This document shows, piece after piece, positions 3,836-45,707 of a stretch of DNA of 45,707 nucleotides; positions within the stretch are counted from its first letter, which is position 1; every line of letters begins with the position of its first letter. The DNA comes from Candidatus Daviesbacteria bacterium (GTDB lineage Bacteria > Patescibacteriota > Microgenomatia > Daviesbacterales > UBA10151): positions 1 to 45,707 of the forward strand of contig JAUSHL010000008.1 of NCBI GenBank assembly GCA_030648645.1, written 5' to 3'. The position numbers and the translations under genes are program-made. The notes beneath the pieces were generated by a model. That model saw only the letters and a list, made by a program, of their open reading frames with translations. It was not told the origin of the DNA and ran no database searches.

Positions 3836-4286
3836 TTTTCTTTTTTAATTTACCGAAAATGAACCTTCCTGCAACCCACCATTCAAAACCTGAAGCATCA
3901 ATTTCAAAAAAATCTTCTTTTTCCAACTGTTTTAATAATGTTTGAATATATTTTGGCATTTTTTTATTTATTTCTTCATCACTAAAAAATTTAACTTTTG
4001 GTGTTTCCCAAGAAGGTCGAAGCTCTCCTTTAATTTCTCCCAAAGCTTCAAAAACAGCATGTCTGCTCTTTTTACCTAAAAGATCAAAATTCCAAATCCC
4101 TTTAAATTTAACATTTTTAGCAATAATCCCTGTTTCTTCTTCCAGTTCTCTGATGGCAGCTTTCTCCGGTTTTTCATCTTTTTCTATGCCTCCACCAGGT
4201 ATAACCCAAAGTCCATTATCTTCTCTTTTACAAAATAAAATTCCATTTTCGGTTTTTACCACACAAAGTGCAGCTTTGAAGTTCAT
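3807..4286 (-). CDS. Nudix hydrolase
   Basis: Nudix box GGGIEKDEKPEKAAIRELEEETGI. Confidence 0.8.
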   Translation of the reverse strand: MNFKAALCVVKTENGILFCKREDNGLWVIPGGGIEKDEKPEKAAIRELEEETGIIAKNVKFKGIWNFDLLGKKSRHAVFEALGEIKGELRPSWETPKVKFFSDEEINKKMPKYIQTLLKQLEKEDFFEIDASGFEWWVAGRFIFGKLKKKIRSLLVRGF

Positions 4287-18672: not shown

Positions 18673-19443
18673 ATGTCAGGACATTCTAAATGGAGTACTA
18701 TCAAGAGGGCGAAAGGGACTGCAGATATTAAAAAAGGCATGGTATTTACCAAATTAGCCAATGCCATTGCACTTGCTGCAAGAGCAGGAAATTCCGGTGA
18801 TGTGAACTCTAATCCAAGACTGCGGACTGTTTTAGAAGATGCCAAAAAAGTGAATATGCCCAAAGAAAATGTCCAAAGAGCAATCGATCGGGGACTGGGA
18901 AAATTACCCGGACAAACTATTGAAGAAGTAACTTATGAAGGTTTTGGTCCGGGCAAAGTTGCTTTTTATTTAGAAGGGGTAACCGATAATAAACTAAGGA
19001 CAAATTCGGAAATTAAAAATCTTTTTGAAAAAAGCGGAGGAAATTTAGGGAGTTTGGGTAGTGTGGCTTATATGTTTGATAAAAAGGGAGAGATAAGAAT
19101 TAAGTCTCAAGTGACAAGTGGTAAAAGTCAAGATGAAGAGATGCTGGAATTAATAGATTTAGGGGCAGGGGATGTAGAAGAGTATCTTGAGGATGAAGTA
19201 CAGAAATATCTTGTGTATACAGAAATTACTCAATTAAATAATGTGAGTACAAAAATTACTCAATCTGGATTTGAGGTAGAATCTGCCGAGATTATAATGA
19301 AACCAAATATAATTGTCAATATTTCTGACAAAGAAATTGCTGAAAAAGTAATGGAGTTTACAGAGAAATTAGAAGAACACGATGATATTCAAAAAGTTTT
19401 TGCCAATTTTGAAATCGATGAAGAGTTGATGAGTAGTCTTTAG
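18673..19443 (+). CDS. yebC: YebC/PmpR-family transcriptional regulator
   Basis: MSGHSKWSTIKRAKG..D..K N-terminus is diagnostic of the family. Located upstream of ruvC, as in many bacteria. Confidence 0.9.
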   Translation: MSGHSKWSTIKRAKGTADIKKGMVFTKLANAIALAARAGNSGDVNSNPRLRTVLEDAKKVNMPKENVQRAIDRGLGKLPGQTIEEVTYEGFGPGKVAFYLEGVTDNKLRTNSEIKNLFEKSGGNLGSLGSVAYMFDKKGEIRIKSQVTSGKSQDEEMLELIDLGAGDVEEYLEDEVQKYLVYTEITQLNNVSTKITQSGFEVESAEIIMKPNIIVNISDKEIAEKVMEFTEKLEEHDDIQKVFANFEIDEELMSSL

Positions 19444-19454
19444 CGAAACTTCTC

Positions 19455-19470
19455 TCCGGCATTTGCCGGA
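19455..19470. repeat. family-A sub-hairpin TCCGGCATTTGCCGGA just after the yebC stop
   Basis: One-mismatch copy of the TCCGGCAATTGCCGGA core seen in family-A elements. No T-run follows, so it is not a canonical terminator. Confidence 0.6.
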
Positions 19471-19518
19471 TCGAAGAATAATATTGTTCGAACATAGTGA
19501 GAACATACAATAAAAATT

Positions 19519-20877: not shown

Positions 20878-21648
20878 TACAATTAATCTAATTTCTAATT
20901 TCTAATGAGGGGAGAAAGGGGAGTAGAGAGCATAATAACCAGCTAAAGTAGGTGATATAGTTTGATATCTTTGATAAATATTAAAAACTATAAGACATTT
21001 TCTGTGCCTAAATATTGCGGTAAATAATATTATCAATTCTAAATATAAAGTAGTGTAATACCATGTAATGTAAGATAGGGGTATCCTCTTTTTGTTCTCT
21101 GTCGTTTCGAATTATTGGTCATTGTGGACAACTGCCAATCCAGCAACTGCCGGATTTTCACGCGTGAAAAAAACACGAAACCGACATCAGAGTAGAAGAG
21201 TGGCATTGTGTTTTTGGGTAAACCAATGGTGCATTTATACTGAGATTAAAGAGTTACTGCACTCTGAGTGGAGTGTATCTTGAGTTACCTCTATTTCATC
21301 AGCTTTTCTGACTCCTCAATTGTCTTGTCGCACAATATTAATATATCAGATTTATGGAGGGATTTCTATTCTGGATCAAAAAGTTTATTAATAAAAAAAG
21401 AGAAAAAATATATGAATTTTTTACTCTATAATTCTACCCTCAAAAATCCTACTTTTTATTTTTCATATCATTTTTCATAACCATAAATTTTAGTAACTAA
21501 CAAAATACCCTTTAGGGCTCTATGACAACCTAAACTTAGATGGTGTAATATACCACTTATCCCCTTTGCGGGCGTTTTAGAGGCCTTCTAGAGCCTCGTG
21601 CCTAGACAGCCTGGAGGAGGATGATGTTTTACCTAAAAATATCATAAT

Positions 21649-21729
21649 GTCATTGCGAGCGACTGAAAGGAGCATGGCAATCTCTAAAAATGAATAAGAT
21701 TGCTTCGTCGTTATACTCCTCGCAATGAC
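21649..21729. repeat. family-A palindromic element, intergenic copy (81 nt)
   Basis: GTCATTGCGAG..GGCAATCTC-loop-AGATTGCTTCGTCG..CTCGCAATGAC. Confidence 0.9.
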
Positions 21730-21808
21730 GAAAAATAACTATGATCTTGACAGTTATTGATTTTCAGCTTATCATTATTCGTATAATCATCCTTATGTGC
21801 ATACAACA

Positions 21809-27870: not shown

Positions 27871-27895
27871 ATATCCAACCCCCGAGGTTGGATAT
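27871..27895. repeat. REP-like hairpin ATATCCAACC-CCCGA-GGTTGGATAT, 5' flank of the RAYT gene
   Basis: 10-bp stem read directly. The inverted-orientation partner is at 28588-28610. Confidence 0.9.
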
Positions 27896-27922
27896 TATAT
27901 TTTAGTATGCTAGCATAAAAAT

Positions 27923-28576
27923 ATGCCTTATAGAACTACTCCATTGGTAGCAGATAGTTTTTATCATGTTTACAATCGTGGGGTTGAGAAAAGAATAATT
28001 TTTTTAGATGAACGAGATTATCAAAGATTTCTGCAAACTCTTTATTATTATCAATTCACAGGTCCGAAACCTGCCTTTTCAGCACGAGATAAATTTCAAA
28101 TAAAAGATTTTAGTACTAATCCCAAAATTGTTGAAATAATTTGTTATTGTTTAATGCCAAACCATTTTCATCTTTTAATAAAGCAACTTAAAGATAATGG
28201 TATTTCCGAATTTATTGGTAAAGTTATCAATAGTTATACCAAATATTTTAATACTAAACATAAAAGAGTTGGTCCTTTATTACAAGGGACTTTTAAGACA
28301 GTTCTTGTAGATGATAATTTTCAATTTATGCATTTATCCCGTTATATCCACTTAAATCCTTATGTTGATAAATTGGTTGAAAATTTAGAGGTCTATGAAT
28401 ATTCATCTTATCCTCAATTTATTGGTTTAACCACAAATCTTTTATCTGTGCCTCAAGCCATATTAAGTCTATTTAAAGATGGTAATGATTATAAAGAATT
28501 TGTTGTAGGTCATGCAGATTATGCTAGAGAATTAGCACATATTAAACATATACTAATAGAAAATTTCGAGGAGTAA
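27923..28576 (+). CDS. REP-associated tyrosine transposase (RAYT; IS200/IS605-type Y1 HUH transposase family)
   Basis: YHVYNRG N-terminus, HUH motif LMPNHFHLL, catalytic Tyr region SRYIHLNPY. Flanked by inverted REP hairpins. Confidence 0.8.
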   Translation: MPYRTTPLVADSFYHVYNRGVEKRIIFLDERDYQRFLQTLYYYQFTGPKPAFSARDKFQIKDFSTNPKIVEIICYCLMPNHFHLLIKQLKDNGISEFIGKVINSYTKYFNTKHKRVGPLLQGTFKTVLVDDNFQFMHLSRYIHLNPYVDKLVENLEVYEYSSYPQFIGLTTNLLSVPQAILSLFKDGNDYKEFVVGHADYARELAHIKHILIENFEE

Positions 28577-28587
28577 TATATCCAGCC

Positions 28588-28610
28588 TATCCAACCTCGG
28601 GGGTTGGATA
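28588..28610. repeat. REP-like hairpin TATCCAACC-TCGGG-GGTTGGATA, 3' flank of the RAYT gene (opposite orientation)
   Basis: The loop is the reverse complement of the loop at 27871-27895. Confidence 0.9.
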
Positions 28611-28611
28611 T

Positions 28612-28818
28612 TCAGATCAGAGATTTGCCGGCGAAGCCGTAGTACATAAAATCACCAACAAAGCCAAAGATTTGAATTGGCCAAGTGAAAGCTACCATAA
28701 AAAATCCCGGAGAAAAAAGGGACAATGCCGGCCAGTGGTAAAACCAAGCATAAACACAGGCAAAAACTAACCCAAAAATAAAATAAAAAATCACTATTTT
28801 TGAAAACTTTTTTTCCAT
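28612..28818 (-). CDS. small 2-TM membrane protein (68 aa)
   Basis: The ATG at 28818 lies 1 nt after the gyrA stop (TAAAATG). The longer ORF version, up to 28872, overlaps gyrA. Confidence 0.45.
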   Translation of the reverse strand: MEKKFSKIVIFYFIFGLVFACVYAWFYHWPALSLFSPGFFMVAFTWPIQIFGFVGDFMYYGFAGKSLI

Positions 28819-28819
28819 T

Positions 28820-31411
28820 TTAAATTTTTTCTTTTGATGAAACCACCGTTGCTGCTGCGACTTGCTCCCCATCTCTTGTTCTCATTAAAATTACACCTTG
28901 GGTTTGTCTTTGCAGTGTTGGTACATCCTTCAGCGGAATTTTAATAATTTGACCTTTATTGGAAGTCATAACCAAGGTATCATCATCCGGATTGATAATT
29001 TGAGCTGTGACAATTGCACCGGTTTTAGAGGTAACTTGGGCAGCTTTTACTCCACTCCCACCCCGTAATTGTTTTGACCATGCAGTAATTGAGCTTTTTT
29101 TGCCCAAACCATTTGCCATGACTACGAGTAATTGATCAGTTTTTGGATAATTGATTTTATTTGCAGAGATGACAAAATCTTCTTTGCCTAATTTTACTCC
29201 CCTGACTCCTGATGTATCCCGATGGGTTGGCCTAATATCTTTTTCATCAAATTTAATCGATTGTCCCAAGGATGAAACTAAAATAATTTCATCATTGCCT
29301 GTGGTGTTGCAAACCCATCCTAATTCATCACCGGCATCAAGTTTAATAGAAATCAAACCATTTTTTCTGATTGAAGCATATTCTTCAATTGGAGTTTTTT
29401 TGACATTACCATCTTTAGTACACATAAACATAAATTTAGTCACGTCTTTGGCACGGAGTGATAAAACAGCAGTGATTTTTTCGCCTTGTTCAATGTTTAT
29501 TAAATTAACGATTGCCTGTCCTTTGGAAATTTTTGAACTTTCCGGAATTTCCCAAACTTTAAGTTGAAAAGCTCTTCCTTTATTGGTAAAAAATAATAAA
29601 TTATCCAGAGTTTTGGTATAAAACAAATGCGATACAGCATCAGTTTCCTTAGTGGTAATTCCTGACACTCCCTTGCCTCCCCTACCCTGTACTCTAAATG
29701 TTGAAGGTAATTGTCTTTTAATATAGCCACCTTCAGTAATTGTTACAATTGTTGATTCATCAGCCACCAAATCCTCTTCAGAGAACTCCCCTACTTTTGA
29801 TTTATAAACTCTGGTTCTTCGGGCGTCTCCATATTTTTCTTTAATTTTAGTTATTTCATCTTTGATTACACTTAAGATTTTTTCAGGATGTGCAAGCAAG
29901 TCTTCAAGGTAAGTAATTAATTCTCTGACCATTTTTAGCTCATCCTCAATTTTTTGTCTTTCAAGGGCTGCTAAACGTCTCAGTTGCATGTCTAAAATAG
30001 CCTGAGATTGAATCTCAGTTAATTTAAACTTGACCATCAAGTTTTGCTTAGCATCATCTGCATCTTTACTTTTTTTGATGGTTTCAATCACAGCATCAAT
30101 ATTATCCACAGCAATTTTTAATCCTTCTAAAATATGGGCTCTGGCTTTAGCTTCTTTTAATTCGAATTCTGATCTTCTTCTGATAACTATTTGGCGGTGT
30201 GTAATAAATTCTTCTAAAATATGTTTTAAGGTCATTAAGTGTGGTAATACTCCATCTGATAGTGCGACCATGTTGACATTAAAAACAGACTGCATGGCAG
30301 TGTATTTAAATAAATTATTCAATACTGATTGTGGTTTGGAATCTCTTTTTAATTCTACCACCACTCTCATTCCTCTTCTGTCTGATTCATCACGTAAATC
30401 TGTAATTCCTTCGACTTTTTTCTCTTTGTGTAAATCAGCAATTCGGGACACAAGTGTGGCTTTGTTTACCTGAAAAGGAAGTTCAGTGATAATAATACTG
30501 AATTTGCCATTTTTTTCTTCTTCAATTTCAGCTTTAGCTCTCATGACAATTCGACCTTTTCCTGTAGCATAAGCATTCATGATTTCGGCTGAATCATAAA
30601 TAGAACCACCGGTTGGAAAATCAGGACCTTTGATAAATTTCATTAAATCTTCCACACTTGCCTCGCTTTGGAATTTAGTATTTATTTCTACGTCATTGCG
30701 AGAAGTCTTCGACGAAGCAATCTCATTTGTCATTCTGGCTTGACCAGAATCAGATTGCTTCTCCGGCAATTGCCGGATCGCAATGACGGTATGTTGACTA
30801 TCTGATTTGTTCGGATGTTCAATCATATACATCAAAGCATCAGAAAGTTCTCCCAAATTATGAGGCGGAATTTGGGTTGCCATGCCGACAGCAATACCAG
30901 AGGCACCATTTAAAAGTAAATTTGGTATGACAGACGGTAAAACTGTAGGTTCAACTGTGGTACTTGAGTAATTATCAATATAATCAACAGTTTCTTTGTG
31001 GATATCGCGGAGTAGCTCATCAGCAATCGCCGAAAGTCGGGCTTCAGTATAACGCATGGCGGCAGGAGAATCTCCGTCGACTGATCCAAAATTTCCCTGC
31101 CCATCAACCAACATATATCTCATTGAGAAATTTTGAGCCATACGGACCATGGCATCATAAACCGGAATATCACCATGAGGGTGATAGTTTTTTAAAACTT
31201 CTCCAACTACAGCGGCAGATTTTTGATGTCTACTGGTATGATGTAGACCTGATTGGTGCATGGCATAAATAATTCTACGGTGGACTGGCTTTAATCCATC
31301 TCTGACATCAGGTAAAGCTCGGGAGACTATGACAGACATGGCATAGTCCAAGTAACAGCGTTTCATTTCCGGAATAATGGGAGTTAATTCAATCTTGCCA
31401 ATGTTACTCAT
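28820..31411 (-). CDS. gyrA: DNA gyrase subunit A with in-frame repeat insertion
   Basis: [10 protein letters not shown], active-site [15 protein letters not shown], and C-terminal beta-pinwheel repeats. The ATG at 31411 is preceded by an AAGGA SD. Confidence 0.95.
30692..30787. repeat. family-A palindromic element (96 nt = 32 codons) in-frame inside gyrA
   Basis: GTCATTGCGAG..GAAGCAATCTC..hairpin ATTCTGG/CCAGAAT..AGATTGCTTC TCCGGCAATTGCCGGA TCGCAATGAC. Translated as [32 protein letters not shown]. Confidence 0.9.
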
Positions 31412-31558
31412 TTTATTGATCCTTTTTGGCAAGTCAAACACTGTGAGATCCTAGTGCTATTGATCGAAAAGTTGTTTATTTTACCGATATTGCTCATAAA
31501 AATAGCCTTTTAAGGCTCATTCATTATATCCTGATTGATCTCAAAAGTGCAAGGTTTT

Positions 31559-32073: not shown

Positions 32074-33510
32074 TTATCCGAAGATCTTTGCTACAGCTAA
32101 ATTAAATTTTCTACCCCTGTCAAATTCATTTTGGAATAAATTAAAAGATGCAGCTCCGGGGGAAAATAGAATTGTATCCCCTGGTTTTGTAACTGATTTT
32201 ACATCAGTTAACAATTTTTCTAAATCGGAATATGTACCTTGAATTAAAAGGGATTGCTTCTCCTGCTTTTGCCGGATCGCAATGACGTCATTGCGAGGAG
32301 TCTTCGACGAAGCAATCTGCTGTAAACATTTCTTTATTTCATCAGTTGCAGAACCTTCCAAAAAATAAACAGATTTTGCATATTTTTCGATTGCCTGAGC
32401 CAGATCATTGTATGGTAAATCTTTATTAACTCCACCGGTTATCAAAATAGCTCCGGATAGACTTTTAATATTTGCCTGTGCTGCTACAGGTGTGGTGGCA
32501 GCTGTATCGTTATAAATTTTAATTCCATTTTTATCGTAAATTAATTGAAGTCTAAATTCTACTCCCGCAAAATTTTCCAGTGCTTGATACGCACGTTGGG
32601 CGTCCCCCTGCGTGCGTAATATTTCATTGAAAACTGCAAAAGATGCTGCAAAGTTTTCCAGATTATGTTCCCCGGGGATTTTAGGTAAAAAATTTTCCGG
32701 CAAATCAGTTAGTGAATAATAAATAATTTTTCCTTTTAATCCCTTAATAAAATTATCTGAATTTGTAATAATGTCTCCTTTTTTAATAAATAAAAAATCA
32801 TTGTTGTTTTGAAACTTTGCAATAAATCTTTTCGCTTCAGTGTAGTTTTCCATTGTGCCATGATAATTAAGATGGTCCGGATAAATATTAGAAATTACAG
32901 CCCAATGAGGAGAAACATGATGTTCTCCGAAGGCCATCAGTTGAAAAGAAGAAATTTCCAACACAACCAAAGTATTAGTTTTAACATAAGGAATTGTATC
33001 TAAAACACTCTTGCCAATGTTGCCTGCAAAAATTATATCTTTACCACCTGCTTTTAAGGTTTCATAAATCAAAGAAGCTGTGGTTGATTTCCCTTTGGTA
33101 CCTGTAACTCCAATAACTTGCTCAGGTTTTACAAATTGCAAAAAAATTCCCATATCCATTTCCACTTGTTTCCCTTTTTCTCTGGCATATTTTAAATATG
33201 GATTATCAGGTTTTAGTGCAGGGTTTCTGATAATTAAATCAGCCCAATCCAAATCTTCAAACTTATGTTCCCCTAATACATACTCTATTTCAGGAAATTC
33301 TTTAAGTTGATCAAGGGATGGTTTTAAGAATTCTTTATCCTTTAAATCTGTAACTTTAACTTTGGCTCCGAGCTTAGCAAAAAATCTGGTAGCTCCCAGC
33401 CCTCCCTGGTTTATGCCTAAACCCAGTATAAGAACTCGCTTGCCGCGAAATCTTGATTCTTCGCTTCGCTCAGAAATTAAAACCTTCTTTCCGGCAAAAT
33501 TGGTATCCAT
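32074..33510 (-). CDS. murD: UDP-N-acetylmuramoylalanine--D-glutamate ligase with repeat insertions
   Basis: Rossmann N-terminus RVLILGLGINQGG, Mur ligase P-loop GVTGTKGKSTT, and DHLNYHG. Confidence 0.85.
   Translation of the reverse strand: MDTNFAGKKVLISERSEESRFRGKRVLILGLGINQGGLGATRFFAKLGAKVKVTDLKDKEFLKPSLDQLKEFPEIEYVLGEHKFEDLDWADLIIRNPALKPDNPYLKYAREKGKQVEMDMGIFLQFVKPEQVIGVTGTKGKSTTASLIYETLKAGGKDIIFAGNIGKSVLDTIPYVKTNTLVVLEISSFQLMAFGEHHVSPHWAVISNIYPDHLNYHGTMENYTEAKRFIAKFQNNNDFLFIKKGDIITNSDNFIKGLKGKIIYYSLTDLPENFLPKIPGEHNLENFAASFAVFNEILRTQGDAQRAYQALENFAGVEFRLQLIYDKNGIKIYNDTAATTPVAAQANIKSLSGAILITGGVNKDLPYNDLAQAIEKYAKSVYFLEGSATDEIKKCLQQIASSKTPRNDVIAIRQKQEKQSLLIQGTYSDLEKLLTDVKSVTKPGDTILFSPGAASFNLFQNEFDRGRKFNLAVAKIFG
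32252..32317. repeat. family-A element, permuted arm order (66 nt = 22 codons), in-frame inside murD
   Basis: GATTGCTTC..GCCGGATCGCAATGAC|GTCATTGCGAG..GAAGCAATC forms a near-perfect hairpin. Translated as IASSKTPRNDVIAIRQKQEKQS. Confidence 0.9.
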
Positions 33511-33550
33511 CAACTTCTAATTTTAACAGATTGGAAGTATAATTTGGCAA

Positions 33551-34378
33551 ATGAATAAAAATAGCCCAATTGGAATATTTGATTCTGGTGTTGGAGGACT
33601 AACTGTTGTTAAGGAAATTTTACAAGAATTACCTCATGAATCTTTGATTTATTTAGGTGATACAGCCAGAGTACCTTATGGAACTCGTGGTAAAGAAGTA
33701 ATTACTAAATTTGCCTTAGAAATGGCAAATTATCTTCTTAAACATAATGTCAAAATTTTAGTGGTGGCCTGCAACACGATTTCAGCTACATGCTTAAATG
33801 AAATTCAAACTCTCTCTTCTGTTCCAGTTTTAGGGGTGATTGATTCGGCAGTAGATGAAGCACTAAAAGCTACTAAAATAAAACATATTGGAGTTATTGG
33901 AACCAGAGCTACTATAAGTAGCGGAGTTTATGAAGATAAAATTAAAAAAATTGATTCTCAGATTAAAGTTAGCTCTGCCAGTTGTCCTTTGCTTGTACCA
34001 CTAGTTGAAGAAGGTTTTACTTCTTGTTTGGCTACCAAGTTAATAGTTCAGGATTATTTAAATAAACTTCCTCTAAAAGATATTGACCCTGATTCAATCG
34101 GGATTGATACCTTGATATTAGGATGTACGCATTACCCTCTTTTGCAAGATATTATTCAGGATGTTGCGGGGCAAAAAATAACTTTAATTGATTCTGCAAA
34201 ACCTTTAGCCAAAAACTTGAGAAAAATTCTAGAAGAAAAAAATCTTTTAAGAGAAAATAAAAAACCAAATTATGAATTTTATATAACAGATGCTCCAGAA
34301 AGGGCCAAGGAAATTGCAGAAAATTTTTTTGGCAAAAAACTTCCAGGAGAATTCAAAAAAATAGATCTTGAATGTTAA
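33551..34378 (+). CDS. murI: glutamate racemase
   Basis: IGIFDSGVGGLTV, LGDTARVPYG, VVACNTISA, GCTHYP. Confidence 0.95.
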   Translation: MNKNSPIGIFDSGVGGLTVVKEILQELPHESLIYLGDTARVPYGTRGKEVITKFALEMANYLLKHNVKILVVACNTISATCLNEIQTLSSVPVLGVIDSAVDEALKATKIKHIGVIGTRATISSGVYEDKIKKIDSQIKVSSASCPLLVPLVEEGFTSCLATKLIVQDYLNKLPLKDIDPDSIGIDTLILGCTHYPLLQDIIQDVAGQKITLIDSAKPLAKNLRKILEEKNLLRENKKPNYEFYITDAPERAKEIAENFFGKKLPGEFKKIDLEC

Positions 34379-35721
34379 TTTGGGTTCATAAGTTTTAGAG
34401 CTAATTTATGATTATCCCCTGCTCCCATGAAAATTACAAGATTATCCTCTTTAATTTCTTTGGGTAATAAATCTAATAATTTATCATAAGAATTTATATA
34501 TTTAACATTTTCTTGATTAATGGCATCAACTAATTGCTGGGTGTTTACTAAACCAGTATCTACTTCGCGACTGGGAAAAATATCTAAAATATATGTTCTT
34601 TCTGCTGGGGAGTTTTTTAAAACTTTAACAAAATCATCAAACAAAGCTTTGGTTCGGGAAAACATATGAGGTTGAAAAACTAAAATAATTTTTTTATCAG
34701 GAAATTTTTCCTTGGCACCTTCCAAAGTTACTTTAATTTCTGTGGGGTGATGAGCAAAATCAGAAATAATTTGTGCTCCATTAAGTTCCCCAATTTTTTC
34801 AAATCTTCTCCCTACTCCGGAAAAATTCATTAAGCTTTTTTTAATTATTTCCGGATCAATTTTTAAAGAAAGTCCCAATTGGAAAACTGCTGAGGCATTT
34901 AAAATATTGTGTTTTCCCGGAATTTGTAACGGAAAATCAATTAATTTTTCCGAATAATCTATGATATTGTCAATGATGTTGTCATTGCGATCCAGCGAAG
35001 CTGGAGAAGCAATCTCCGACCTAGATTGCTTCGTCGTTTCACTCCTCGCAATGACATCCATGATTCCCTTGTCGGATAAATTGGCAATAATTTTTTCTTT
35101 GGTTTGGGAAAGAAATTTTTTAAAACTTTTCTTATAACTTTCAAAATCTTTAAAATATTCCGGGTGATCCATTTCTATTGTTGTGCAGATAGTAATATCA
35201 GGATGTGTAACTAAAAAATTATCATTAAATTCATCAGCCTCAGTGATAAAATATTTCCCCTTCCCAAGCCTGTAATTAGTTCCCCATTTTGGCACAATTG
35301 CTCCAACTTCAACCGTAGGATCAAATCCTGCATCTTCCAAAAGTTGCCCTATCATGGCAGTGGTTGTAGTTTTACCATGAGTTCCACAAATTGCGATCAC
35401 AAATTTATCTTTTTCTAAATATTTTCCCATAAATTCCTGCCAAGTTAAAATTGGAATACCCAATTTTTTGGCTTCCTCTAATTCTGGATTATTAGGATCC
35501 AATGAATAAATTGCCGGGGTAACTGTTAAAATATCAATATCTTTTAAATGTTCCGGAGAGTGTCCTTCAAACAATTTTTTAGCATCAAAAACTTTGGTAA
35601 ATTCATTAAATGGATTTTTATCACAGCCGGAAATTGCAAATCCTTCATTTTGAGCAATTGAGGCTACAGCTGAAGCCCCACTTCCCCCAATCCCTAAAAA
35701 ATGAACTTTTAAATCCTTCAT
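34375..35721 (-). CDS. murC: UDP-N-acetylmuramate--L-alanine ligase with in-frame repeat insertion
   Basis: HFLGIGGSGASAVA and ICGTHGKTTTTAM P-loops, and DFAHHPTEI. Confidence 0.9.
   Translation of the reverse strand: MKDLKVHFLGIGGSGASAVASIAQNEGFAISGCDKNPFNEFTKVFDAKKLFEGHSPEHLKDIDILTVTPAIYSLDPNNPELEEAKKLGIPILTWQEFMGKYLEKDKFVIAICGTHGKTTTTAMIGQLLEDAGFDPTVEVGAIVPKWGTNYRLGKGKYFITEADEFNDNFLVTHPDITICTTIEMDHPEYFKDFESYKKSFKKFLSQTKEKIIANLSDKGIMDVIARSETTKQSRSEIASPASLDRNDNIIDNIIDYSEKLIDFPLQIPGKHNILNASAVFQLGLSLKIDPEIIKKSLMNFSGVGRRFEKIGELNGAQIISDFAHHPTEIKVTLEGAKEKFPDKKIILVFQPHMFSRTKALFDDFVKVLKNSPAERTYILDIFPSREVDTGLVNTQQLVDAINQENVKYINSYDKLLDLLPKEIKEDNLVIFMGAGDNHKLALKLMNPN
34981..35055. repeat. family-A palindromic element (75 nt = 25 codons) in-frame inside murC
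   Basis: GTCATTGCGA..GAAGCAATCTC..AGATTGCTTCGTCG..CTCGCAATGAC. Translated as VIARSETTKQSRSEIASPASLDRND. Confidence 0.9.
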
Positions 35722-37368: not shown

Positions 37369-40620
<3,252 letters not shown>

Positions 40621-40643: not shown

Positions 40644-41327
40644 CTAGCTCTCATTATTGTGAGGTAGTAATAACATTAAATATTCTAAAACTGCTCTGAT
40701 GTTTACATTTTGCTTTGCCCATTTCTCCGCTTCCAGTAAATCCTTCAGAAAATTATTATCCAACCCCCGAGGTTGGATATGATTGATTAATTGGTTTCTA
40801 AAATAAGCGGTCATTGTAAAAAGAAAATTTTCTTTATCTTCAAGCTTTTCTATAAATTTAAATCTTTCTTCCATATTTGCTTCCAAAAGTTTCTCAATTT
40901 CTTCCTGATATTTTTGTCCAACTAATCCAACCTCGGGGGTTGGAGTATTTTGGAGATTAATTATTTTGCATCGGGAAATAATGGTTGGCAGAAGTTGATC
41001 TTCTGATCTTGCTCCTAAAATTAAAGAAACACAGTCCCCTGCTTCTTCTAAAGTTTTAAGCAGTGCGTTTTGGGCATCCAAACTTAAATTTTCGGCAACT
41101 AAAAGCACAACAGCCTGATTTTTTCCTTGATATGGTTTTAAACTTAAAAATTCCTGAATTTTTCTGCTCTCCCCTATCCCCAACTTTTCTTCTTGCGAAA
41201 ACCAAAGGGTGTTGGGGTGATTTTGTGAAAGATCTAAACCCTTTAAAATTTGCTCAATTTCACTTTGTCTTACCGTAATATCAGGATGAATTACTAAACT
41301 TGAAATCATGAAATGATTATACTGCAT
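40644..41327 (-). CDS. holB: short DNA polymerase III delta-prime-like clamp-loader subunit (no P-loop) containing two REP hairpins
   Basis: LSLDAQNALLKTLEE and LLPTIISRCK match the sensor-1/SRC region of delta-prime. The start could be ATG 41327, ATG 41309 or GTG 41333. Confidence 0.5.
   Translation of the reverse strand: MQYNHFMISSLVIHPDITVRQSEIEQILKGLDLSQNHPNTLWFSQEEKLGIGESRKIQEFLSLKPYQGKNQAVVLLVAENLSLDAQNALLKTLEEAGDCVSLILGARSEDQLLPTIISRCKIINLQNTPTPEVGLVGQKYQEEIEKLLEANMEERFKFIEKLEDKENFLFTMTAYFRNQLINHIQPRGLDNNFLKDLLEAEKWAKQNVNIRAVLEYLMLLLPHNNES
40757..40780. repeat. REP-like hairpin TATCCAACC-CCCGA-GGTTGGATA(T) inside the holB-like gene
   Basis: Same sequence as the RAYT-flanking REP. Translated as HIQPRGLD. 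Confidence 0.9.
40926..40944. repeat. REP-like hairpin TCCAACC-TCGGG-GGTTGGA inside the holB-like gene (opposite orientation)
   Basis: Inverted relative to 40757-40780. Translated as TPTPEVGL. Confidence 0.9.
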
Positions 41328-45557: not shown

Positions 45558-45568
45558 TTTTGGTAACT

Positions 45569-45707
45569 GTAATGCGAAATCTCAATTGATATAGTTTTGC
45601 GAAATCTGAACTGAAACAATCTCAAACATTTTTTGTGTCCTTTAATTAACTACTCTTTGTCATTGCGAGCGATCCGGCAATTGCCGGAGAGCGTGGCAAT
45701 CTCTTAA
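45569..45707 (+). repeat. 139-nt dispersed repeat, copy 3, ending exactly at the window end
   Basis: Direct copy of 1021-1159 (about 3 mismatches) and a perfect inverted copy of 1-138. Confidence 0.9.

Follow-up and report, generated by a model that had tools for sequence, protein, structure and literature searches.

In-frame palindromic repeats in housekeeping genes are an established phenomenon, known from the Rickettsia palindromic elements (RPEs) and from the GTAG- and CGTC-tagged repetitive extragenic palindromic (REP) sequences of several phyla (Di Nocera et al. 2013, PMC3733652). RPEs occur in frame in many genes of unrelated housekeeping functions and are translated; their positions are presumed to leave the fold of the host protein undisturbed (Ogata et al. 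2000, as related in PMC10969869 and PMC3733652). Units of the CGTC superfamily carry a CGTC tag at one end, often in the form TGTC and with CCTC as a variant, a perfect stem of 8-9 bp around a loop of 4-5 nucleotides (nt), in which the first two positions are complementary (A-T, T-A), and an unpaired 3-nt CCA tail, and no associated transposase is reported (PMC3733652). Head-to-head dimers with spacers of 20-100 bp, often structured, predominate over the rarer tail-to-tail dimers; intragenic copies are often found in genes for DNA synthesis and repair, with dimers encoding 20-30 residues, and RPE-6 and RPE-4 of Rickettsia conorii have been assigned to CGTC-1 and CGTC-4, respectively (PMC3733652). 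Here we analyse a 45.7-kb stretch of DNA (the window), attributed by its best GyrA matches to Candidatus Daviesbacteria, in the Microgenomates lineage of the candidate phyla radiation (CPR), in which a palindromic element of a repeat family that we call family A lies in frame within gyrA.

The gyrA gene (28820-31441, reverse strand) is an intact open reading frame (ORF) of 873 codons starting from GTG and containing the Pfam domains DNA_topoisoIV and DNA_gyraseA_C. The database version of the protein starts 10 codons later (863 residues), and its identity to the GyrA of Candidatus Daviesbacteria is 70-92%. On the same strand, positions 30692-30787 of the gene hold the palindromic element, 96 nt or exactly 32 codons, which encodes GyrA residues 219-250 between the motifs IPPHNL (residue 191) and GPDFPTG (residue 272). 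The conserved terminus of the element reaches one base further out, as CGTC or TGTC, and with the tag bases C30691 and G30788 added the gyrA element spans 30691-30788. Read on the forward strand, unit 1 (30692-30723) has the composition GTCATTGCGAG-AAGTCTTCGACGA-AGCAATCT, that is, the tag, a stem base starting with AT, a small inner hairpin, GCAAT and the tail (full reading GTCATTGCGAGAAGTCTTCGACGAAGCAATCT). It is followed by a spacer of 28 nt (30724-30751; CATTTGTCATTCTGGCTTGACCAGAATC), which forms a stem-loop of its own (TTCTGG...CCAGAA) and has no second occurrence in the window, and by the inverted unit 2 (30752-30787), composed of AGATTGCTTC-TCCGGCAATTGCCGGA-TCGCAATGAC (full reading AGATTGCTTCTCCGGCAATTGCCGGATCGCAATGAC). 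Two unlike CGTC-tagged REP units, arranged head-to-head around a structured spacer, make the gyrA copy a heterodimer. As single-stranded DNA (ssDNA) the element folds with -28.6 kcal/mol, compared with -11.5±2.5 kcal/mol for shuffled sequences (z = -6.8), and its 31-nt left unit recurs at 32287-32317 with one mismatch, where shuffles gave an expectation of 0. On the coding strand only frame 0 is open, frames 1 and 2 holding stops, and the encoded 32-residue peptide is hydrophilic and free of cysteine. The sequence, the ORF, the fold and the repeat matches all bear out the initial annotation, which had described a 96-nt, 32-codon element in frame within gyrA. No Rfam family, introns included, was found in the window at gathering thresholds or in the surroundings of the element at relaxed thresholds; the 32-residue peptide had a single match among 1.84 billion representative proteins, to an unrelated tandem-repeat protein; and a 44-residue composite peptide probe yielded no candidate in a word-indexed protein database. 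A metagenome scan with the inner hairpin CCGGCAATTGCCGGATCGC returned 75 matches, mostly chance occurrences in GC-rich genes, with about 11 relevant low-GC loci.

The window contains seven copies or half-copies of the family, with the invariant blocks GTCATTGCGA, GCAATCT, AGATTGC and TCGCAATGAC in common. Two of them, which the initial annotation did not include, lie in frame within 5 kb of gyrA in two further intact genes, both encoding Mur ligases, and are likewise divisible by three in length, open only in the frame of the host gene and predicted to encode hydrophilic peptides free of cysteine. The murD copy (32252-32317, reverse strand, within the ORF 32074-33513) measures 66 nt or 22 codons (IASSKTPRNDVIAIRQKQEKQS) and is a tail-to-tail dimer made of the two unit variants of the gyrA copy in swapped order with abutting tags, unit 1 being 97% identical to 32287-32317 and unit 2 92% identical to 32252-32287. 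The murC copy (34981-35055, reverse strand, within the ORF 34375-35721) is a head-to-head dimer of 75 nt or 25 codons (VIARSETTKQSRSEIASPASLDRND). Two intergenic head-to-head dimers of 100 nt (1111-1210) and 81 nt (21649-21729) had already been ascribed to the same family as the gyrA element, correctly so, as they have the invariant blocks and lie between ORFs. Single units occupy the contig start (1-48), within a 139-nt inverted repeat with 1020-1158 and 45568-45706, and the contig end (45659-45707), where the contig break coincides with the palindrome centre. Four dimers of the window are head-to-head (gyrA, murC, 1111 and 21649) and one is tail-to-tail (murD). In every window copy ATTGC opens the stem body and GCAAT closes it, and the 3-nt tails are CTC, CTG, CTT or CCC. 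The tag is CGTC at both ends of the gyrA copy (30691-30694, and 30785-30788 on the complement) and TGTC or CGTC in the other copies.

For a view of the family beyond the window, we searched one-genome-per-species contigs (at least 120 stretches) and IMG/VR viral contigs (at least 120) with the pattern GTCATTGCGA-N50-80-TCGCAATGAC, which detects head-to-head dimers only. The feature statistics rest on the 278 complete copies among the matches listed, 277 of which had enough flanking sequence. The hosts among the matches in the one-genome-per-species contigs include Alpha-, Gamma- and Deltaproteobacteria, Bacteroidota, Chloroflexi, Cyanobacteria, Planctomycetota, Nitrospirota and Patescibacteria. 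An inner GCAATS...SATTGC pair is present in 226 of the 278 copies and in 0 after shuffling of the interiors. C (179) or T (81) precedes GTCATTGCGA in 260 of 277 copies, and TCGCAATGAC is followed by G (188) or A (80), giving family ends of the form (C/T)GTCATTGCGAG...CTCGCAATGAC(G/A). Of 462 units, 256 (55%) have CCA as the 3-nt tail behind GCAAT, 89 have CTC and 31 have CCC. The fixed stem is only 5 bp long (ATTGC/GCAAT), and the interior between ATTGCGA and GCAAT varies from 5 to 28 nt (median 14.5), often with a nested mini-hairpin. Target-site duplications of 2, 3, 4 and 5 nt were counted in 11, 5, 1 and 2 of the 277 copies, against expectations of 17, 4, 1 and 0.3, and this lack of target-site duplication fits a copy process through a hairpin or ssDNA rather than a DDE-type MITE (a miniature transposable element with inverted repeats). 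In low-GC contigs, where GMP synthase and UvrA are bona fide intragenic hosts, a length divisible by three was found in 5 of 6 intragenic copies as opposed to 20 of 59 intergenic copies (p = 0.028, Fisher's test). This enrichment among the intragenic copies of these contigs points to survivorship, in which only in-frame, stop-free inserts at tolerant sites persist.

Two sets of copies were also found in other settings. Complete head-to-head dimers of the family occur on at least 120 contigs predicted to be viral or proviral (L199-L278 and other IMG/VR loci). In addition, a single unit of 36 nt with the same sequence as unit 2 of the gyrA element (AGATTGCTTCTCCGGCAATTGCCGGATCGCAATGAC) occurs in Por_Secre_tail domains (L137/L158, L147/L160, L152 and L181), in frame and at an identical position in diverged type IX secretion system (T9SS) sorting domains on metagenome contigs of 34-36% GC. 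The flanks of these units differ markedly, whereas the unit is identical throughout save for one base in L137/L158.

On these sequence features, the element is assigned to the pan-bacterial CGTC-tagged REP superfamily and is not lineage-specific. The tag, the AT-starting stem, the 3-nt tail, the lack of target-site duplication and the lack of a dedicated transposase are like those described for this superfamily, the dimers of the window may agree with its mainly head-to-head layout, and the reading of GTC ATT as VI... and of AAT GAC as ...ND is also found in published intragenic copies (PMC3733652). However, the published stem of 8-9 bp with a loop of 4-5 nt does not hold for family A, which argues for a distinct or variant family within the CGTC superfamily. 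One of the four published families may overlap family A; CGTC-3, judged from its peptide VIAGLDPAIH, would share the CGTC-ATTGC...GCAAT-CCA frame. Furthermore, the hosts given for CGTC repeats in 2013 do not include CPR/Patescibacteria, Chloroflexi, Nitrospirota or viral contigs, and gyrA, murC and murD are absent from those supplementary files of that paper that were consulted, the table of intragenic REPs included.

The likeness to RPEs, put forward in the initial annotation as a precedent, proved closer than an analogy, since RPE-4 and RPE-6 themselves belong to the CGTC-tagged superfamily according to PMC3733652. As with RPEs, the insertion is palindromic and in frame, gyrA, murD and murC remain intact, and the gyrA site is a variable loop. 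As judged from a peptide comparison, the sequence family differs: the peptides VIPAKAGI, DSRFRGND and VIPWLDHGI, given for CGTC-1 and CGTC-4 of R. conorii, are unlike VIA..KQS and IAS..RND of family A. The host is a CPR bacterium and not an obligate intracellular alphaproteobacterium, and RPE-1, at about 150 nt, exceeds the element in length. In its behaviour the element resembles an RPE, and it has the tag of the superfamily, yet we do not file it as an RPE.

Other short palindromic repeats share part of these features. MITEs such as Correia/NEMIS, ERIC and the Coxiella QMITE are likewise short and non-autonomous, with terminal inverted repeats and occasional in-frame fusions to host ORFs, but in family A target-site duplications are at chance level and the build is modular, from REP units. 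No parent insertion sequence or transposase with family-A ends was seen in the window. The REPINs (REP doublets forming hairpins) and the systems of REPs with REP-associated tyrosine transposases (RAYTs), reportedly described by Bertels and Rainey in 2011 and by Nunvar et al. in 2010, resemble our element in that two inverted REPs and a spacer form one long hairpin, no target duplication is made and a RAYT-like gene is present on the contig. REPINs, however, carry a GTAG tag, flank their own RAYT and are essentially extragenic, whereas here the tag is CGTC/TGTC and the RAYT-like gene is accompanied by another hairpin.

Comparison with the best 120 GyrA relatives, 70-92% identical, showed that the loop between PPHNL and GPDFPTG is hypervariable in this clade, ranging from 36 to 88 residues of low-complexity, unalignable sequence. 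The nearest relatives have short and unrelated loops of 43 residues (P0002, 92% identity) and 48 residues (P0003, 90%), and the 96 nt are missing from both loci at the DNA level. At the peptide level, a stretch homologous to the 32 residues was found in none of 119 orthologues (the nearest two and 117 more). Orthologues do carry a loop at this site, but not one homologous to the 32 residues, and the statement of the initial annotation that repeat DNA had invaded an essential gene, rather than an ancestral loop being retained, therefore stands. The signature VIA..KQS / IAS..RND is likewise missing from these orthologues, with the partial exception of P0043, whose palindromic loop (z = -3.8) contains IASPARND and probably represents a decayed unit of independent origin. 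The gyrA surroundings from seven related loci, together about 65 kb, contained no family-A terminus, against 7 copies in the window, which argues for a recent expansion of the family in this lineage. We also considered that the whole hypervariable loop of the clade might be built of palindromic insertions; in six of seven other loops analysed as DNA, hairpin potential was unremarkable (z = +1.3 to -1.5), and the idea is unsupported for GyrA, although decay could hide old insertions.

That GyrA elsewhere has little at this position was confirmed by the solved structures: in all solved GyrA and ParC proteins the helix after IPPHNL leads directly to the (I/V)xxLMxxIPGPDFPT segment, so that, set against any of these structures, the loop is an extra segment. 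In Bacillus subtilis GyrA (4DDQ), residues 178-203 align with the left flank and 204-337 with the right, and nothing lies opposite the 49-residue loop. An AlphaFold2 model of the window GyrA, built from a 71-sequence alignment, placed helices at 193-208 and 263-267 and gave 214-254 a predicted local distance difference test score (pLDDT) below 50 and no secondary structure. Mapped in this way, as the initial annotation had suggested, the insertion falls in a segment without counterpart in solved structures and modelled as a disordered coil, and the element probably occupies a clade-specific loop that is disordered and at the protein surface, where the chain enters the tower domain. The other gyrase subunit of the window, GyrB (37369-40608, reverse strand), has 1079 residues and contains an intein (Pfam Intein_splicing, residues 454-874), the GyrB of relatives having 658-665 residues; both gyrase subunits thus host selfish insertions, of different kinds.

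The MurD and MurC loops gave a similar picture with more copies. The murD and murC inserts of the window are absent from L319, and the murD insert is also absent from L002, which has no murC coverage; both loci have short murD loops in the stretch from YFLEGSAT to YxDLEK (32230-32330 in the window). At the same site the closest relative, L001, carries a different CGTC-type dimer, TGTCATTCCTGCG...GCGGGATGAC (4046-4153), read as VIPAK...GIQ...WIP...RDD (z = -5.2), and at its murC site (2239-2307) an in-frame, perfect hairpin of 16 bp, CCAAGGCCAGGCCTTGG... (z = -7.7). Among 120 MurD orthologues examined, at least 9 further ones have family-A units in the loop: P0130 (L323) has a tail-to-tail family-A dimer like that of the window, and a single unit in another frame (SLR...RSNL) is present in at least 7 (P0158, P0164, P0166, P0197, P0218, P0236 and P0239), with decayed traces in P0198 and P0220. 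Units in the MurD loop were confirmed as DNA in L323, L324 and L325, and some persist in frame, in two reading frames, across orthologues that are 55-65% identical. The MurD loop is either a hot spot with repeated hits or the site of one very old insertion remodelled by indels. At the 5' end of the murD ORF, a sequence that resembles a unit of a further REP-like family (TTCTGAGCGAAGCGAAGAATC; 33455-33476, reverse strand) is read as ISERSEESR; the true start of murD may lie downstream of it, because it sits in an N-terminal extension missing from relatives.

All these data, taken at the level of sequence, make it very probable that the gyrA element is a recently inserted REP dimer carried as a translated passenger in a permissive GyrA loop. 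A REP dimer of two units of about 32-36 nt, with the tags outside and a 28-nt spacer, would have entered gyrA recently. It would have moved through a hairpin or ssDNA intermediate, for instance by the action in trans of a Y1/HUH transposase or by template switching at the replication fork. It would have survived owing to the clade-specific hypervariable loop, its length divisible by three and the sole stop-free frame for its orientation, and its translation would then add a passenger loop of 32 residues to GyrA. The murD and murC copies would be further cases of the same process, and the gyrA insert most probably has no dedicated function.

A candidate for a trans-acting mobiliser is present about 250 nt downstream of gyrA, where a RAYT-like gene (27923-28576, forward strand), the only Y1 transposase gene of the window, encodes a Y1 (HUH) transposase with a Pfam Y1_Tnp match (1.6e-6) and a match to NCBIfam REP_Tyr_transpos (1.2e-12) below the cut-off. 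A tblastn search with this protein detected no relative in the loci surrounding some 200 other family copies. Two additional copies of the hairpin that encloses this gene (TATCCAACCCCCGAGGTTGGATA) lie at 40757-40783 and 40924-40950, and together they represent a second REP-like family in a REPtron-like arrangement.

Several points weigh against the proposal of a recently inserted, neutral passenger. The exact empty site was not recovered, as the flanks of the loop have diverged even in the relatives with 92% identity, and because of this divergence the insertion may have been of 96 nt, or of 98 nt with the tag bases, and an accompanying deletion is possible. The window gyrA gene comes from one assembly only, with no independent record of the protein, and the neutrality of the insert is an assumption. 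The quality of the GyrA model is modest (mean pLDDT 69.4, predicted TM-score 0.46), so that the description of the loop as disordered and exposed is a soft one. Regarding mobilisation, PMC3733652 reports no dedicated transposase for CGTC REPs, the hairpins TATCCAACCCCCGAGGTTGGATA that enclose the RAYT-like gene in inverted orientation (27872-27898 and 28588-28614) are not of family A, and the gene is kept beside gyrA in relatives without nearby family-A copies (85% identity in L002). On the last two grounds the RAYT-like neighbour is at most an unproven candidate for the mobiliser of family A.

Among the other explanations, an adaptive insertion, in which the peptide would provide an interaction or regulatory surface of gyrase, or the stem-loop, in gyrA mRNA or DNA, would tune expression, supercoiling sensing or local recombination, is unlikely. 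The hairpin of the gyrA element is strong, the persistence of MurD-loop units in frame across distant orthologues would agree with a function, intragenic REPs recur in DNA-metabolism genes according to PMC3733652, and UvrA carries a copy in our census. Nevertheless, the gyrA insert occurs in one genome only and is missing from 92%-identical relatives, and the hosts of the family are unrelated (gyrase, Mur ligases, GMP synthase and a T9SS sorting domain). In addition, the inserts always lie in variable loops and sister genomes hold different palindromes at the same sites, which is the pattern expected of tolerated passengers.

An assembly artefact, with repeat reads wrongly threaded into gyrA, is suggested by the single assembly and by the breaks of the contig at repeat copies at both ends. 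It is very unlikely, given that gyrA is colinear on both sides of the element with the frame kept exactly and that independent assemblies contain in-frame insertions in murD (L323, L324 and L325) and in other genes; moreover, the spacer of the gyrA copy, being unique in the window, was not borrowed from another local copy.

That the 32 residues are an old, ancestral or convergent loop and merely repeat-like would be in keeping with the expanded loop of all relatives and with the palindromic IASPARND loop of P0043, but it is made highly improbable by the 119 orthologues without a homologous stretch, by the 92-97% DNA identity of the units to the murD copy and the invariant blocks common with the intergenic copies, and by the six relatives' loops without notable hairpin potential. 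Removal of the element before it reaches the protein, by RNA-level excision or translational bypass that would leave GyrA without the peptide, is equally improbable: a long hairpin could in principle be processed, but no Rfam match was obtained, the units in MurD show coding-sequence evolution in two frames, and the enrichment of open-frame copies divisible by three in genes argues for translation, as this bias would otherwise have no reason.

Further repeat-associated features were observed elsewhere in the window. The contig ends (1-139 and 45568-45706) are 100% reverse-complementary over 139 nt, with the third copy (1020-1158) at 99%, and each of the three terminates in a family-A unit; the copies 1-139 and 1020-1158 enclose two small ORFs (122-505 and 509-994) with no Pfam or NCBIfam match. 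A break of the assembly at a repeat could account for these terminal repeats, as could a composite element of larger size. A stretch of about 900 nt (20878-21796) is devoid of tRNAs and of ORFs of at least 80 residues and remained unmatched in Rfam even at E <= 1; it precedes a gene of the integrase/recombinase family, and one of the intergenic family-A dimers lies at its 3' end. Directly after the stop codon of the ORF 18673-19443, a lone hairpin (CTCCGGCATTTGCCGGATCG; 19452-19476) resembles the inner hairpin of unit 2, lacks the conserved ends of the family and may be a remnant or a terminator.

With regard to novelty, literature searches found nothing on CPR, on the ATTGCGAG family or on gyrA, murC or murD as REP hosts, and searches with DNA and peptide strings of the element returned primers only, or nothing. 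The initial annotation's expectation that the case was uncharacterised for this lineage holds in this respect, but the phenomenon itself is not new, in-frame REPs having been published for several phyla; together with the pan-bacterial distribution of the family, this makes the finding less novel than had been assumed. What is new is the CPR host, the host genes, a variant of the family whose interior is expanded, a MurD loop in which units recur, and the clustering of three essential-gene hits within 5 kb. The picture drawn from Rickettsia and other bacteria is extended and not changed.

In a more tentative reading, the occurrence of identical 36-nt units in a CPR gyrA and in T9SS sorting domains characteristic of another phylum, together with the copies on viral contigs, might point to an ongoing spread between phyla. 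In the same reading, CGTC REPs might regularly supply essential enzymes of Daviesbacteria, perhaps of CPR bacteria generally, with surface loops specific to the lineage, with the MurD, MurC and GyrA loops hit repeatedly by differing REP units and dimers. If true, part of the hypervariable-loop sequence in these three proteins would be decayed REP DNA. The inserts inflate and diversify CPR proteins and, at these loops, can lead alignments, phylogenies and structure predictions astray; they also mark permissive sites in drug targets (gyrase and Mur ligases) that tolerate 20-30 extra residues. The MurD loop and the burst of copies in one lineage offer a tractable system for the study of CGTC REP movement. 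For the organism, the proposed reading would mean that selfish palindromes enter essential single-copy genes of a CPR bacterium with a reduced genome and are carried there as translated loops.

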